A stretch of DNA of 64,000 nt from Candidatus Marinacidobacterales bacterium (lineage in GTDB: Bacteria > Acidobacteriota > Vicinamibacteria > Marinacidobacterales > SMYC01), in NCBI GenBank assembly GCA_965237955.1, contig OZ250169.1:2464001-2528000 (forward strand), in the 5' to 3' direction. Of the stretch, positions 4,548 through 10,670 are shown one piece after another. The notes beneath the pieces were generated by a model that was not told the DNA's origin, ran no database searches, and saw only the letters and a program-made list of their open reading frames with translations. The translations under genes and the position numbers were made by a program. Position 1 is the first letter of the stretch, and each line of letters begins with the position of its first letter.

Positions 4548-4697
4548 GCCCAGCCTCGAGTCACAAACTCGCTATTATCCCTCGAAGGCGGGGCGGCTGG
4601 ATAGTGGAATCTCGAAGGTACCGAACGCGCGACGATGGTGCAGCCGGAGCACCGTTAGGTTTCATTGCGCTCGTGCATAGCGTACCCTGAAGGCTTC

Positions 4698-6346
4698 ATG
4701 CGTCGATTGGTGATCGCGGTCTCTGTTGCTCTTTCGGTTGCGTGCACTGAGCCTGACCCGCCGCCCGAACCAAAGCGCGACGCATCGCAAGGGGCGGGTA
4801 AACACGTCCAGCTCTTACACCTCGATGGCTACCGACCCGATTTGACCCGGACGCTCCTCGAGGCCGGAAGGCTTCCCCGCCTCTTTGAGCTTCGAGCGCG
4901 CGGTCGCATCTCTTACCAGGCCACGACCGTCGACAAATCGGAGACGATGAAAGTCATCCAGTCCTATCTGACGTCGCAGCTCGATACCAGGGTCGCTGGC
5001 TGGTGGCAATTCGATCGGGAGCGGTTTCGGTTCGCGAACTACTGGCTCGACCCGGCCGAGGTGTTGAACTACGCGCTCGGTCTCGAGTTTCCGGTGAGCC
5101 CCACGATCCAGGACTTTCTCGCGGCGCGCGCGCAAAATCTCGTTGCCGGGATGAGCCTCGCCCGCCGAAGCGTTCCTTTCGAGAATTACGGGCGCTCCTA
5201 CCTCGAAGGCGTGGCTGCCGTGTCGGCTCACACTTATCACGAGCAAGCGGACGCGACGACGAAGAGTTTTCTAGAAATTCATCGCCGGATCGTTCGTGAC
5301 GGCGAGCAACCTCCAGCGCTCTCGACGTTGCTGCTCGCGGCAGCCGACGAGTTCTCGCATGCCTACGGTGTGACCACGGCGCGCGACGAAGCCGAGCACT
5401 GCTTCCGTCGCGATGACGATGGTATGGATAGCACCGTCTTTCGTTTGCTGAACGAGGATTCGACCCTCCGGGATTTCGAGACACGCTACTTTACCCGCGT
5501 TGCTCGAGGCCGCGGGGGGGCCGCCGACGAAATCTGCATCGAGCTCCCGTTGATCGAAGGTCGTCGAGCGGAGCCCCGTTATGTTCTATCCATGATCGTT
5601 GTCGACATCGAGCTTGGCTACGTCATCGATTTTTTCAAGAGCGTTCGCTTCGACGACGGCGAATCTCTTTTCGACCGCACCCTTTTTATCGTGTTTGGCG
5701 ACCACGGCATGGTCGACACCGCGAACGGCATGGTAGACCGGGCCGGCGGCGAGAGCTTGATCACCTATCTGAATCGCCGGCTCGGGCTCGAAACCGGGCA
5801 GCGGGAGACGGCGCTTCCCGACGATATCGAGCTCGGAATCGACTACCAGCACCTGCCGCGCCGATTACGCCAGCCGGAGAGTTATCGTGAGTGGCAGAGT
5901 GAAAACGTCCGCGCCCTCACCGAAGAGGCGAGCTTGTGGTCGCAGGAGTTTTATCGAGAAGGGCGCGAGCTGCTGCTCACCGACTTGCACGAGAGCTACT
6001 GGTGGCTATTTTTTCTAAGGCGGCTTCTCGTCGATCCCAAGGTTGACGAAGCTCTCGATCCCGTGGCCGAGCAAGCGCTCGCTACGTTCCGAAACCTCTA
6101 CCTCCGAAGCCGTCCGGAGTACCTGGCCGCCGAGACCGAGGCGAATCGCGACTTCTACGACCGGAACGTGCGGCTGGTGTATGGAGGCGGTGCCCGGAAC
6201 AACGCGGAGGTCTTCATCCCCGTCTGCGGAGCCAACCGAGCTTGCTCGTGGGAGCGTCGACCCAGCTACGACGAGATTCTGAGGTATCGAGACGGCGCTC
6301 TGATGGAGGCGCTGGTCGAGAACCCGGGCGTCGGCCTTATCTTTAT
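4698..6346 (+). pseudogene. alkaline phosphatase/NPP superfamily lipoprotein, 5' part (interrupted by ISL3)
   Basis: Lipobox-like SVAC, plus LHLDG, DEFSH and GDHG metal-binding motifs. The frame is restored when the IS is removed. Confidence 0.75.
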
Positions 6347-6382
6347 GGTTCTCCTGTCGTTTCGGGGGATCTGATTTGTGTT

Positions 6383-6704
6383 GGAGGGCATGGCCTATGG
6401 ACGCTGCCGCGATTGTGGAAAACGCCGGAAACTCCGGGCGAGAGAGGCGTTTAGGGAAAGGTTGTGAGCACGTACAAACGTGGAGCGGCGTTTTCCACAA
6501 TCGCTTGGAAAACGCTTCGCGTTTCCCACGAGCGCCCACAGGCCCCTCCTGATATATATACAAGAAAGATTAATTCATATGGAATAAGGAAGGGGGGGCT
6601 CGATTAGTGGAGGCTATGGAAAACGCCCTTCCAGGCTTCGAAGAGAACTCAGTCGTGAGCAAGGTCTGAACGACCAGAACCGTGGGGGCGTTTCCCACAG
6701 CCTC
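6383..6704 (-). ncRNA. candidate structured RNA or ssDNA element in the ISL3 left non-coding region
   Basis: Perfect 19-bp stem 6409-6427/6486-6504 plus three further stems. Five A.C mismatches on + become G.U on the minus strand. Confidence 0.5.
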
Positions 6705-6829
6705 GTCTCCCGCTGAGGGGCAGTGGCATTTGGTGAGGCCCGTGGGTTGAGAGGGTAAGCCATGTGTAGATGCGCATCGGCGAGAACGCTAGAATCTTTT
6801 TTTCCGAAAGAGAAAAGAGCGTTCCCGCG

Positions 6830-8050
6830 ATGCGCGTTACTACGTTAGTCAACAAGCTCATCGGATTGCAAGGCCTGTGGGTCCGAGGTTTCCACTTCCA
6901 GGCGGACAAAGCCAGAGTGGTGGTGGATGTAGTACCACGGAGGAGGAAGCCTCTGTGCGGGATTTGCGGACGAAAGGTCCGCAAGAACAAAGATCGCTAC
7001 AATCGCTACTGGCGGCACTTGGACCTGTTCGGAGTCCGGACCTATCTTCGCTACTCGATCCGACGAGTGGTATGTCGGCGGTGTGGAGTGGTCAGAGAAA
7101 AGGTGCCTTGGGCCGACAAGGGAAGCCGCTTTACCAAAAGCTTCGAACAAGAGGTAGCGTGGCTGGCACAGAGGACGGACGTCAGCGCCGTAGCGAACTA
7201 TTTCCGAGTGACGTGGCGTTCGGTGCGACGGATCATCCAGCGAGTGGTTGCCGAGCAGCGGGATGAGCGGCGCGAGCTCGATGGATTGCGGGTGATTGGG
7301 ATGGACGAGATCAGCTACCGCAAACGCCACAAGTACTTAACAGTGGTAATAGACCATCTCAGCGGCCGGGTCGTCTGGGCGGGAAAGGAGCGCAAGGCCA
7401 AGACGCTGCTGCGGTTTTTCCGCAAGCTCGGACCACAAAGAGCCGCGGAGCTCGAAGCGGTCAGCATGGACATGTGGGAGCCGTACATAACTGTCGTCGG
7501 CAAAAAGGCTCCTCAGGCACGGGTGATCTTTGACCGCTTCCACATCGTCAAGCATCTGAACGAGGCCGTGGATAAGACCCGGCGCGAGCTGGTGCGCGAG
7601 CTCAAAGGGACTGCCCGGCGCAACCTCAAGAACACCAAGTTTCCCCTTCTCAAGGCCAAACACAACCGCAGCGCGAAAGACAAACGGGTGCTCCGCGAGC
7701 AGGTGCGAGCTAATCGTCGCCTCTACAGCGCCATGCTTCTGCGCGACGACTTCATGGACCTCTACACCTACAAAACCGAGACATGGGCCAAGAAGTTTCT
7801 CCGAGGATGGCTGCGGCGCGCTATGAGCTCGAGGATAGAGCCCGTCAAACGCGCGGCGAAGATGATCCGCAGCCACTTCGATGGCGTCATCGCGTGGGTC
7901 ACGTGGAGACTCAGCAACGGCCGACTCGAAGGAATGAACAACAAAATCCGGCTGCTGAGCCACCGCAGCTTTGGACTCCACTCTGCCGAAGCTCTCATCA
8001 GTCTCGTCTACCTAAACTGTGGCGGTCTCACCCTCGAGAGGATCCACTGA
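6830..8050 (+). CDS. ISL3 family transposase
   Basis: Zn-finger CxxC..CxxC, IGMDE, SMDM, FDRFH and SNGRLEGMNNKI motifs. Confidence 0.96.
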   Translation: MRVTTLVNKLIGLQGLWVRGFHFQADKARVVVDVVPRRRKPLCGICGRKVRKNKDRYNRYWRHLDLFGVRTYLRYSIRRVVCRRCGVVREKVPWADKGSRFTKSFEQEVAWLAQRTDVSAVANYFRVTWRSVRRIIQRVVAEQRDERRELDGLRVIGMDEISYRKRHKYLTVVIDHLSGRVVWAGKERKAKTLLRFFRKLGPQRAAELEAVSMDMWEPYITVVGKKAPQARVIFDRFHIVKHLNEAVDKTRRELVRELKGTARRNLKNTKFPLLKAKHNRSAKDKRVLREQVRANRRLYSAMLLRDDFMDLYTYKTETWAKKFLRGWLRRAMSSRIEPVKRAAKMIRSHFDGVIAWVTWRLSNGRLEGMNNKIRLLSHRSFGLHSAEALISLVYLNCGGLTLERIH

Positions 8051-8073
8051 AATGGCAGGAGAGGCATCTTTAT

Positions 8074-8920
8074 TAGAAGGAACAACGAGGCGTACTCAGC
8101 CGGTGCCCGCCTTCCGGCTCAGCTCGAGGTGGAGGTGCGTGACCGCGAAGGTCATCGGGGCGTGATCACGGTGAGCCAGGATGCGGCAACGTCCGCGCTC
8201 GTGTTCCACTATCGAACCGATCCAAGCTCCGATGCGGACCCTCTCGGTTACGAAGCGTGGGGGCGCGGCGACGGGACGTTCGGCACGTACAACGAGTGGA
8301 ACGATCGGACGATCGACAGCGACTACGTCAATGTCGTCGGGGGGATGGGCGCGTATCTCTACTCGCACAACCCGGCGATTGGTGATGTCGTCGTGATGCA
8401 CGCCACCAACTGGAATTTCGGGGAGAACGTTGGAGGGCATGGCGGCGTTCATGGTGGCGAGAAGCGTACTGTGATGCTCGTATCCAATCCGGGCGGTCCG
8501 GGCGGCCCCGGTGTCGGCTCGGGAGAGCTACGAGCTCGAGCTCGCTACGCCACGACCGAGGATGGCTCCGTCATCCAAGTCGAGGGCAAAACGCATGTGC
8601 CTACCCTTCTCGATATCGCGCCGACGGCGCTCTCGTTTCTCGGCTATGCGCCAGAGGAGCTCGACGCCTTTGCCGAGAACGAGTTCAAAGCCCACTTGGA
8701 CCAATGGATCCGTTCTCAGCACGACGACATTCTCGTTCACCTCGAAACGATGAGTTCGCTCGAAAAAGCGAAAGACGAAGCCGGCCTTCCCGAGTTGAGC
8801 TTGGAGCCGCTCATGCCGCGCATTTCCCGCCTCCTCGAGTTCGTGGGGACGGCTCGCGAGAAAACCTTGGCGCGCGTCGCGCCGCGACCGATATTGGGGA
8901 ACGAGCTGATCATCGAATGA
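8074..8920 (+). pseudogene. alkaline phosphatase/NPP superfamily lipoprotein, 3' part
   Basis: GGHGG and LLDIAPTAL motifs. In frame with the 5' part across the duplicated target (GLIF-IRRNNEAY). Confidence 0.8.
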
Positions 8921-9225: not shown

Positions 9226-10670
9226 GGAGATGCCCCTGAGATAGTTGAAGGTTAGGAGTGGCGGCTCCTAAGGCCGGGTTCGATAGAATCCGGCTGTGAA
9301 GGAAAAAGAAAGGAGCCACCACGATGTCAAATTACCAAATCATCGATGCGAAGAACAGGAAGAAGCTTCGAGAGATACTGAGCTCGAAGGGGCAAGCTCT
9401 GTTGCCGTTCTTGGATGCGATTGAGCGAACCGAGATAGCGATCGACGAAGTGATCGACGTTGCTGGCCGAGCGACGATCGAAGCGGTCTTGGATCTGTCA
9501 GCCCAAAGTGTGGCTGGGGAGAAACACCCGGGGAAGAAGGGTAGCGATGTTCGCTGGCACGGCCGGCAGGGTGGCGTAGTAAGCCTTGCGGAGCGGAAGT
9601 TGAGAGTGAGCCGGCCACGTCTGCGGCGTAAGGGAAAGGCAGAGGGAGGGGAGGTTGCGATTCCTGCCTACGAAGCGGTGAACAACTCGTCTCGGCTGAG
9701 CCAACGCATCTGGGAAATCCTGATGCTGGGTGTGTCGACGCGCAAGTACGCGTCGGTTCTTCCCGAGATGGCGGAGACGGTAGGGGTTAGCAAGAGCGAG
9801 GTGAGCCGTGAGTTCGTGGAAGCAAGCGCGGAGCAGTTGCAGGGGCTGATGGAGCATCCGCTGGACGAGCTGGAGATCGCGGTCGTGTACCTGGACGGGA
9901 TTCGCTTCGGCGAGCACCACGCGCTGGCGGCAATCGGCGTAGATACAGAGGGATACAAGCATGTTCTGGGGCTTCGGGATGGAGCATCGGAGAACCAGAT
10001 AGTGTGCAAGGCGCTGCTGGAGGACCTGGTCGAACGAGGCCTGAGCCCAGAGCGGTGTCGGCTGTTCGTGATCGATGGCTCCAAGGCGCTACGGGTCGCC
10101 GTCGACGCTGTGTTCGGTACCCACAACAAGGTCCAGCGTTGCAGGAAGCACAAGGAGCGCAATGTGCTCGGTTATCTGCCGCAGGAGCTGAAGCCGCAAG
10201 TGCAAGCGAGCCTGCGTTCGGCCTGGCAGCTCCCAGCAAAGAAGGGCAAAGCGCGGTTGGAGCAACAGGCGAAGTGGCTCGAGGACGACTACCCCTCGGC
10301 GGCGGAGAGCATCCGGGAGGGGCTCGACGAGATGTTCACCATCAACGAGCTCGACCTCCCCGCATCTCTGAAACGCTGCCTTGGATCGACGAACACCATC
10401 GAGTCGTGCTTCAGCGGTGCGCGAGGTCGTACCCGTCGCGTCACCCGCTGGCGCAATGGCAAGATGGTTCTGAGATGGGCCGCTTCGGCTCTGCTCGCCA
10501 CGGAGAAAAATTTCCGTCGTATCATTGGATACCAATCGCTACCGATCCTCGAAGCGAAGTTAGCGGAGGTCACTGAGAATCAAGCGCTCGACAAGCACGC
10601 CAAAGTCGGGTAAACCATGTGTCAGGAGCCGCCACCACCTCGAACCTTCAACTATGGTGGGGGCACCTCC
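9226..10670 (+). mobile_element. IS256 family insertion sequence (1445 bp)
   Basis: IRs GGAGATGCCCCTGAGATAGTTGAAGGTT / GGAGGTGCCCCCACCATAGTTGAAGGTT. 8-bp duplication GAAAATCA at 9218-9225 and 10671-10678. Confidence 0.95.
9324..10613 (+). CDS. IS256 family transposase
   Basis: GVSTRK, VYLDG, VIDGSKAL, QRCRKHKERN and STNTIES motifs. Confidence 0.96.
   Translation: MSNYQIIDAKNRKKLREILSSKGQALLPFLDAIERTEIAIDEVIDVAGRATIEAVLDLSAQSVAGEKHPGKKGSDVRWHGRQGGVVSLAERKLRVSRPRLRRKGKAEGGEVAIPAYEAVNNSSRLSQRIWEILMLGVSTRKYASVLPEMAETVGVSKSEVSREFVEASAEQLQGLMEHPLDELEIAVVYLDGIRFGEHHALAAIGVDTEGYKHVLGLRDGASENQIVCKALLEDLVERGLSPERCRLFVIDGSKALRVAVDAVFGTHNKVQRCRKHKERNVLGYLPQELKPQVQASLRSAWQLPAKKGKARLEQQAKWLEDDYPSAAESIREGLDEMFTINELDLPASLKRCLGSTNTIESCFSGARGRTRRVTRWRNGKMVLRWAASALLATEKNFRRIIGYQSLPILEAKLAEVTENQALDKHAKVG

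Follow-up and report, generated by a model that had tools for sequence, protein, structure and literature searches.

Fold-back modules with DnaA boxes in the leader of an ISL3 insertion sequence, a probable single-strand origin common to unrelated mobile elements

Introduction

Why should the leader of an insertion sequence carry DnaA boxes paired with each other in hairpin stems? The question is raised by an ISL3 element of Candidatus Marinacidobacterales bacterium (assembly GCA_965237955.1, contig OZ250169.1), situated in the 64,000-nucleotide stretch of DNA that was analyzed here as a whole and is called the window. A close comparison for such a structure is the A site, which originates from plasmid R6K. 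There a DnaA box lies in a hairpin of ssDNA (Masai 1990; Carr and Kaguni 2002; both cited in passages of PMC6127211), and according to the same passages it is established that DnaA loads DnaB at such a hairpin when the ssDNA is coated with SSB. Copy-out transposition starts with a single-strand bridge, after which host replication converts the figure-eight to a dsDNA circle; the passages of PMC7780238 on this subject present copy-out/paste-in as the route taken by most bacterial IS families, and leave unsaid how the machinery is recruited. IS3, IS21, IS256, IS110 and ISL3 are listed as circle-forming families, IS481 being absent from the list as given in the relevant part of bioRxiv 2023.06.07.543989. 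For an IS110 element, part of another preprint (bioRxiv 2025.10.25.684509) describes circles of either ssDNA or dsDNA, the latter being preferred at one junction.

Results

The element and its insertion site

The ISL3 is 1,719 bp long (window 6347-8065) and is present in 53 near-full copies in the 8.13-Mb genome, with mostly AT-rich targets. The assignment to the family follows from a DDE_Tnp_ISL3 transposase (Pfam matches: DDE_Tnp_ISL3 1.5e-70, HTH_Tnp_ISL3 and Zn_ribbon_ISL3), imperfect 25-bp terminal inverted repeats and an 8-bp target duplication. The transposase domains, terminal repeats of ~25 bp and 8-bp duplications in AT-rich targets are as in other ISL3 elements, unlike the 480-bp structured leader: in most of the relatives examined the leader is short and the module described below is absent.

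6339..6346, plus strand: left copy of the 8-bp target-site duplication ATCTTTAT, from the empty site in run X1
6347..6371, plus strand: left terminal inverted repeat of ISL3, the start point of the 53 near-full copies
6830..8050, plus strand: ISL3 transposase of 406 aa (start at ATG 6830) in a frame open from 6770
8041..8065, minus strand: right terminal inverted repeat, from repeat detection
8066..8073, plus strand: right copy of the target-site duplication, from the empty site in run X1

The empty site was found in a contig of run X1, where 1727 bases are absent and 8 letters match either side. The interrupted gene (window 4665-6346 and 8066-8920) has a weak phosphodiesterase match in Pfam. 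An IS256-family transposase is encoded at window 9324-10613, 1.2 kb 3' of the ISL3. No replichore bias was seen among the 53 copies (27 or 28 of 53); a lagging-strand bias of ISL3 is reported for some chromosomes in part of PMC3971601. Logan contigs of runs X1, X10, X15 and X16, a type of data that drops rare forms, contained no circle junction of this ISL3. Contigs from RNA libraries come without strand or ends and were therefore not used as evidence on transcripts. The 9-mer TTTTCCACA occurs 179 times genome-wide and 117 of these occurrences are within copies of this ISL3, so the element could titrate DnaA and affect the timing of initiation.

Architecture of the leader

The leader contains two fold-back modules, and both reach full pairing only on the minus strand, via G·T wobbles: internal stem mismatches that are A:C on plus are G·T on minus. 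Module 1 (6392-6544) is a three-way junction of an outer stem, a 19-bp side branch, which is its variable part, and a core hairpin with a GAA loop; the core is the unit matched across taxa.

6392..6405, minus strand: outer stem arm of module 1, partner 6531-6544, two A:C on plus that are G·T on minus (sequence and fold)
6409..6504, minus strand: side branch of module 1, 19-bp perfect stem with TGTGGAAAA at 6414-6422 and TTTTCCACA at 6491-6499 (fold)
6504..6530, minus strand: core hairpin of module 1, box arms CTTGGAAAA / TTTCCCACG, c(GAA)g triloop, G·T at box position 4 (fold)
6531..6544, minus strand: second, weak box GCGCCCACA and GC clamp of module 1, also the outer-stem arm
6546..6554, minus strand: three weak trio-like triplets, 3'-GAG-GAC-TAT-5', 5 nt past the second box (sequence)
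6550..6590, no strand: AT-rich spacer, 78% AT, predicted to be open between the modules on the folded strand
6610..6704, minus strand: module 2, 19-bp stem with one composite box (repeat detection and fold)

Every motif read from the letters at the outset was found at its given position, and the structure proved larger than described. TGTGGAAAA (6414-6422) and TTTTCCACA (6491-6499) do pair with each other in a 19-bp stem (6409-6427/6486-6504) that is 100% complementary, TTTCCCACA is present at 6691-6699 and lies in a second 19-bp stem (6610-6628/6686-6704, 89%), the tract between the two domains is AT-rich to a degree reached by only 1.0e-4 of the 41-nt windows of this 60% GC genome, and the claimed mini-hairpin is there, GCTTCGC at 6514-6520 being GCGAAGC on minus. 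The motifs of the first domain were thus in place, but the domain does not start at 6409 as proposed; it begins at 6392, because the 14-bp outer stem (6392-6405/6531-6544) closes it. The boxes lie in stems, as stated, but the perfect pair 6414/6491 that was emphasized belongs to the variable side branch. The core hairpin carries a box of its own (6504-6512/6522-6530), and the box conserved across families is the one mispaired at position 4, found in this hairpin and in the second domain. The box arms of module 2 are TATGGAAAA (6615-6623) and TTTCCCACA; on the minus strand they form G·T pairs at positions 4 and 8.

For 6400-6715 the folding z-scores were -6.3 for DNA minus, -5.4 for DNA plus, -7.5 for RNA minus and -3.8 for RNA plus, and in each of the four strand and chemistry tests 0 of 100 shuffles matched the native folding. 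An 82% variant of the ISL3 elsewhere in the host genome (C1:5,579,427) has two changes in the left-arm box that still form wobble pairs on the minus strand, and the leader is 94% identical in an element of another Marinacidobacterales genome (L092). The promoter scan gave no sigma-70-like promoter in 6340-6900. No Rfam match above gathering score was obtained for the window region or for six other module-bearing loci; a match in the window region at E 0.7 was dismissed as chance.

Distribution among insertion sequences and genomes

A pattern scan of GTDB genomes yielded at least 122 loci. Among the matches listed, 80 have titles, and they come from Acidobacteriota, Alpha-, Beta- and Deltaproteobacteria, Actinobacteria, Bacteroidota and others. 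The oriC-like, palindromic or coding loci L048, L062, L070, L093, L117 and L141 were dropped before counting, as were matches too near contig ends in the comparison of 92 modules described below. The 80 listed matches represent 76 distinct loci with long flanks, whose neighboring ORFs were scanned with Pfam. A transposase-type match stands beside the module in 49 of these 76 listed loci: IS3-type in 27, IS481-like in 5, IstB/IS21 in 5, ISL3 in 4, other rve in 3, HTH-only in 3 and IS110 in 2, the family labels being our reading of the Pfam domains. The other 27 listed loci comprise one with a rolling-circle Rep and 26 with neither, the latter including oriC-like or chance matches and contig ends. 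IS256 adjoins the module at L005, L016, L021 and L148, which belong to other sets, and a DDE_Tnp_1 or Y1 transposase is near it at two loci (L068, L087), where the link is ambiguous. L087 has clear CGA triplets, ~300 nt from the 3' end of the Y1/IS200-like transposase gene. Of 300 other genomes in the phylum, 14 gave a BLAST match to the core, adjoining IS3, IS256 and ISL3 genes. This spread across families points to a host factor. The association with circle-forming IS families is no more than suggestive, the count being one of module-bearing loci.

In 48 of the 49 assigned loci among the matches listed, L092 being the exception, the module faces away from the transposase gene; its side and strand relative to that gene vary (5' or 3', sense or antisense). 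Thirteen related ISL3 elements with ends were compared: three carry the module, two of them with it facing inward from the left end as in this ISL3 and one outward, one is ambiguous and nine are without it. The module is dispensable for the ISL3 family. What had been presented as a feature of the ISL3 leader is indeed present there, but it is a cross-family cassette and not specific to ISL3.

A loose regex over the host genome returned mostly chance matches; the strict scan found the module only in this ISL3 and in one IS3 end. The IS3-family element has a related four-branch module at its left end:

host C1:991,020-991,230 (minus strand) and 678,536-678,584: IS3-family related module

Its tail is nearly identical (CCTCCT..GATATATACA), which suggests that the cassette may have been exchanged between families.

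Conservation and pairing of the box

Box conservation was judged from a metagenome scan whose pattern fixed nothing but the downstream triplets and the inner hairpin, to which box positions 1-2 belong. The 120 matches were reduced to 37 by dereplication, about 4 of those by chance. The first pattern had fixed most box positions and excluded TTA boxes, and was therefore not used for this purpose. The right-arm box bases are kept (C4 in 32, C5 in 33, C6 in 32, A7 in 27, C8 in 31 and A9 in 24 of 37), the commonest base at positions 10-12 beyond the box reaches only 15-17 of 37, and conservation stops at the box edge. Watson-Crick pairing at positions 8 and 9 is found in only 15 and 18 of 37, respectively. 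Because these positions are often unpaired yet conserved, the box sequence is kept beyond the needs of pairing. The outcome named beforehand as refuting, free variation of the box under preserved pairing, was therefore not seen, positions 4-9 being kept as sequence even where pairing fails.

Position 4, which the pattern left free, is A:C on the top strand and hence G·T when folded in 31 of 37. The folded strand takes TTDT from the left arm and TGTGG from the right arm. In the duplex the right arm has C4 in 85 of 92 dereplicated modules of the first pattern scan among the matches listed, and in 32 of 37 from the metagenome scan; the left arm usually deviates at positions 8-9, a full TTKTCCACA being present in 20 of the 92 listed modules. 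Some variants have a perfect TTATCCACA arm, and phage contigs have a TTATCCACA/TTACCCACA version. Deviation from TTATNCACA reduces DnaA affinity (part of PMC5043019). Because each arm alone is imperfect, the core box would be weak in the chromosome and completed on folding, and we infer that DnaA would bind the composite box with its G·T pair.

Adjacent to the loop, the 92 listed modules have a stem pair of G:C in 58, C:G in 18, T:A in 12 and A:T in 1. This pair covaries, with Watson-Crick pairs of four types in 89 of 92, and box position 3, the degenerate W, covaries as well. Folding is stronger on the opposite strand in 79 of 89 listed modules vs 32 of 58 control windows. DNA hairpins of the c(GNA)g type are very stable. 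Three-base loops read GNA on the folded strand in 34 of 46 listed cases, of which only 10 could close a c(UNCG)g RNA loop on the other strand. LexA sites (CTGT-N8-ACAG) and CRP sites (TGTGA-N6-TCACA) were tried as explanations of the paired arms and rejected, the spacing of the arms being variable and far longer.

An origin-like tail

Downstream of the first box lies a second one: in 65 of the 92 listed modules a second CAC[AC] ends 8-9 nt past the first. It is followed by a short GC clamp and then by C-periodic triplets, with C at +4, 7, 10 and 13 in 192 of 292 cells against a shuffle mean of 94 and maximum of 116 (among the matches listed). The family-wide 3-nt periodicity is strong, yet the central base of the triplets is often C or T. 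In Acidobacteriota the listed triplets are CTn/CGn in 39 of 45. Read on the folded strand, these have A or C in the middle, and it is with these two bases that B. subtilis DnaA can unwind DNA (part of PMC10721633). In proteobacteria they are CAA/CAG in 61 of 70 listed, giving a central T, which B. subtilis DnaA handles poorly according to the same part; 5'-TTGTTG contains the E. coli ssDNA motif TT[G/A]T(T) (part of PMC10325909). The criterion for DnaA-trios is at least three 3'-NAN-5' within 16 bp of a box (part of PMC8287927). Module 1 of the leader has three such triplets (6546-6554), weak and off-phase, at +5 where the family consensus is +4, and no clear trios follow module 2.

Host origins offer a comparison, in which taxon counts of triplets and boxes are not phylogenetically independent and two unpublished genomes (L385, L416) were excluded from the dnaA and hemE regions. 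When the regions downstream of dnaA were compared in 29 Acidobacteriota genomes (L372-L401), 21 of the 30 box-like 9-mers were TTTTCCACA and 2 were TTATCCACA, and genomes with at least one TTTTCCACA there number 10 vs 4 in the control window; TTTTCCACA is possibly the phylum-typical DnaA box of Acidobacteriota. The box-box-GC-CTA layout is found in four dnaA-dnaN regions of the phylum (L373, L377, L381, L388). In the host itself the dnaA-dnaN gap (C1 ~2.352 Mb) contains a single TTATCCACA and an AT tract, and clear trios are absent. Proteobacterial modules prefer TTG boxes, TTATCCACA leads with 15 of 49 upstream of alphaproteobacterial hemE, and the tails in these hemE regions are mixed (CAT/CCA/CTA/CAA); only one of five module-bearing alphaproteobacterial genomes has an origin-like hemE region. 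Triplet type and box variant follow the oriC of the host in Acidobacteriota and only loosely in Alphaproteobacteria.

Single-stranded replicons, plasmids and R6K

The following replicons carry the module:

L147/L152: Rep_OBD; module between rep and a pMV158-type nick motif
L335: Rep_OBD and Zot-family ATPase
L027: REP_ORF2-G2P
L160: inovirus-like by gene order
L368:2390-2435, Dulem virus 83, PP511375: Microviridae; long sense-strand hairpin between pilot and Rep genes

In 5 of 5 lineages of ssDNA phages and rolling-circle replicons, a small and partly related sample, the folded strand is the gene-sense strand, presumably the packaged or displaced one. The module of Dulem virus 83 is a candidate complementary-strand origin; no clear trios were seen in this Microviridae copy. 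A viral scan for the tail alone gave 50 matches, with the hairpin only in L335, L343 and L367, and protein-based viral searches added little to the set. L313, a relative of the inovirus L160, had no TTDCCCAC match in the portion of its sequence that was covered. BLAST against plasmids and phages returned mostly short chance matches; pB1000 and the Dulem viruses, at E 0.3-0.4, were accepted only after folding, and a pVA60 match (L370) was kept out of the assigned replicons.

Some further occurrences were noted on plasmids and other contigs. In pB1000 (NC_014813, L369:4325-4395) a long one-strand hairpin with the module lies upstream of mobC, and ~60 related records of small Pasteurellaceae plasmids match it. 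Among L343, L154/L157/L159 and L161, the module is in a conjugative element with a TraG/VirD4 match and near parA-like genes of prophage-like contigs.

R6K itself has a hairpin of TGTGGTAAA/TTTTCCACA, mispaired at position 4, at ~25,899-25,960 of L371 (NZ_LT827129) and ~120 bp left of the gamma-origin box. It is a candidate for the A site.

Discussion

From these comparisons we consider it probable that the two fold-back modules of the leader, of a kind common to unrelated IS, ssDNA phages and plasmids, act as a DnaA-dependent single-strand origin of the A-site type and serve copy-out transposition. With more reserve we are inclined to see in them a widespread and apparently undescribed class of single-strand origin, a folded chromosomal unwinding element with a DnaA box completed only by fold-back, through which DnaA and helicase would be recruited by members of at least six IS families, by plasmids, and by phages of the filamentous and microvirus types. 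The original prediction, that the element recruits host DnaA or primosome proteins, is supported in so far as the comparative evidence favors a single-strand origin; replication of its circle, taken as the work of an autonomous dsDNA origin, is not supported.

The proposed mechanism is as follows. The transposase would bridge one strand to form the figure-eight, and the flanking 3'-OH would prime replication that displaces the bridged strand. The module, now single-stranded, would fold, and its imperfect arms would jointly form a duplex box, with T4 and TGTGG on opposite arms. DnaA on the tandem boxes could then spread to the unpaired trio/AT tail and load the helicase, after which primase and polymerase would copy the strand into a double-stranded circle ready for insertion. 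In most elements the module faces the nearer end and would therefore be exposed early. In this ISL3 it lies at the left end and faces inward. Its exposure would therefore come last on the antisense strand, which is predicted to be the productive one; such late exposure would resemble the origin just upstream of the nick site in the rolling-circle L147. Since the folded strand is antisense in some ISL3/IS3 elements and sense in others, either end must be able to act as donor in this model.

Another host factor could read the same structure. The start triplet of E. coli primase is 5'-CTG-3', which is what the CAG repeats give on the folded strand. Strand-specific folding, DNA-type loops and location in ssDNA replicons would fit any single-strand origin, and primosome- and RNA-polymerase-dependent ssi/sso are known (part of PMC5714925). 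A priming or fork-loading signal for a PriA-type primosome, primase or RNA polymerase, with only secondary likeness to a DnaA box, is nevertheless rather unlikely, because conservation is confined to exactly nine box positions, position 3 varies among bases that the box allows, the box-box-GC-trio layout is that of dnaA-dnaN regions and 6340-6900 lacks a sigma-70-like promoter. It is also conceivable that DnaA acts on the double-stranded boxes, regulating transposition or the transposase or opening a duplex mini-origin, with hairpins that are incidental or cruciform. DnaA binding at the IS50 end is a precedent, the pair 6414/6491 is perfect in the duplex, most of the genome's TTTTCCACA belong to the element, and tandem boxes, trios and an AT tract make up a duplex-unwinding layout (part of PMC8287927). 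Against this, the conserved right-arm box has C4 in the duplex, for which lower affinity is expected (part of PMC5043019) and which is repaired only by folding; compensatory changes in the stems, and wobbles confined to one strand, show that folding is under selection, and an active duplex origin in 53 copies would probably be costly. We regard this explanation as unlikely.

A structured RNA of the elements, either an antisense regulator or a cis-acting leader, would account for the strong folding of the minus strand as RNA and for the wobbles, G·U being frequent in RNA; the leader is covered by RNA-library contigs, and the strand found in ssDNA phages is by itself compatible with RNA, since their packaged strand is the mRNA-sense strand. 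These contigs cover leader and ORF equally and are strandless, there is no Rfam match here or in the six other loci, the side and strand of the module are inconsistent relative to the transposase, and C-G-closed GNA triloops suit DNA, all of which makes an RNA very improbable. Hardly credible, finally, is a miniature repeat, selfish or neutral, that is carried along by mobile elements and has no function for them: its patchiness in ISL3 (3 of 13 relatives) and loci without a nearby transposase would be expected of such a repeat, but in the host genome the module is unscattered, confined to this ISL3 and the one IS3 end, it is oriented away from the transposase gene in 48 of 49 assigned loci among the matches listed, L092 excepted, and the limits of its conservation coincide with the box.

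The reading as a DnaA-dependent single-strand origin places the module between known systems. Like the A site of the ABC primosome, it is a strand-specific DNA hairpin whose stem contains a DnaA box, and the candidate A-site hairpin of R6K has TTTTCCACA opposite TGTGG-x-AAA with position 4 mispaired as in the module, although the partner of T4 is G in the module and not T. The A site is described with a single box, whereas the module is branched, with boxes in tandem, a mini-hairpin with a GNA loop and a tail that resembles trios, and sits inside insertion sequences and ssDNA phages. With the basal unwinding system (BUS) of oriC it shares the box-box-GC-triplets-AT order, with triplets on the TGTGG strand (parts of PMC8287927 and PMC10721633), and tandem boxes of which the upstream one is nearer to consensus (6522-6530 and the weak 6532-6540 in the window); the tailed scaffold of the BUS structure resembles the folded module (part of PMC10721633). 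BUS acts on a duplex with a good upstream box, while that of the module is defective in the duplex (C4), its triplets are often without central A and weak in this copy, and it is found in 53 IS copies and not in a chromosomal origin, the dnaA-dnaN region being elsewhere (~2.352 Mb). The gene-sense folding, and in L147 the location just upstream of the nick motif, recall the sso/ssi of rolling-circle plasmids and ssDNA phages, but the examples described in part of PMC5714925 use RNA polymerase (pT181) or the phiX174 primosome, and DnaA is absent from the main text of that review. The module would thus work like the A site and be built like BUS, and is a candidate member of either. In the open-access full-text literature searched, we found no description of DnaA-box hairpins or trios inside insertion sequences.

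If this is correct, a host entry point would be named for the replication step of copy-out transposition. Completion of the box in single strands only would explain why dozens of chromosomal copies do not fire as origins. With 60-150 nt of DNA, a predicted partner, a strand and a set of mutations, the element is directly testable. It would also suggest that ssDNA phages, plasmids and transposons commonly make natural use of the ABC primosome, which appears in the literature consulted mainly as an in-vitro assay.
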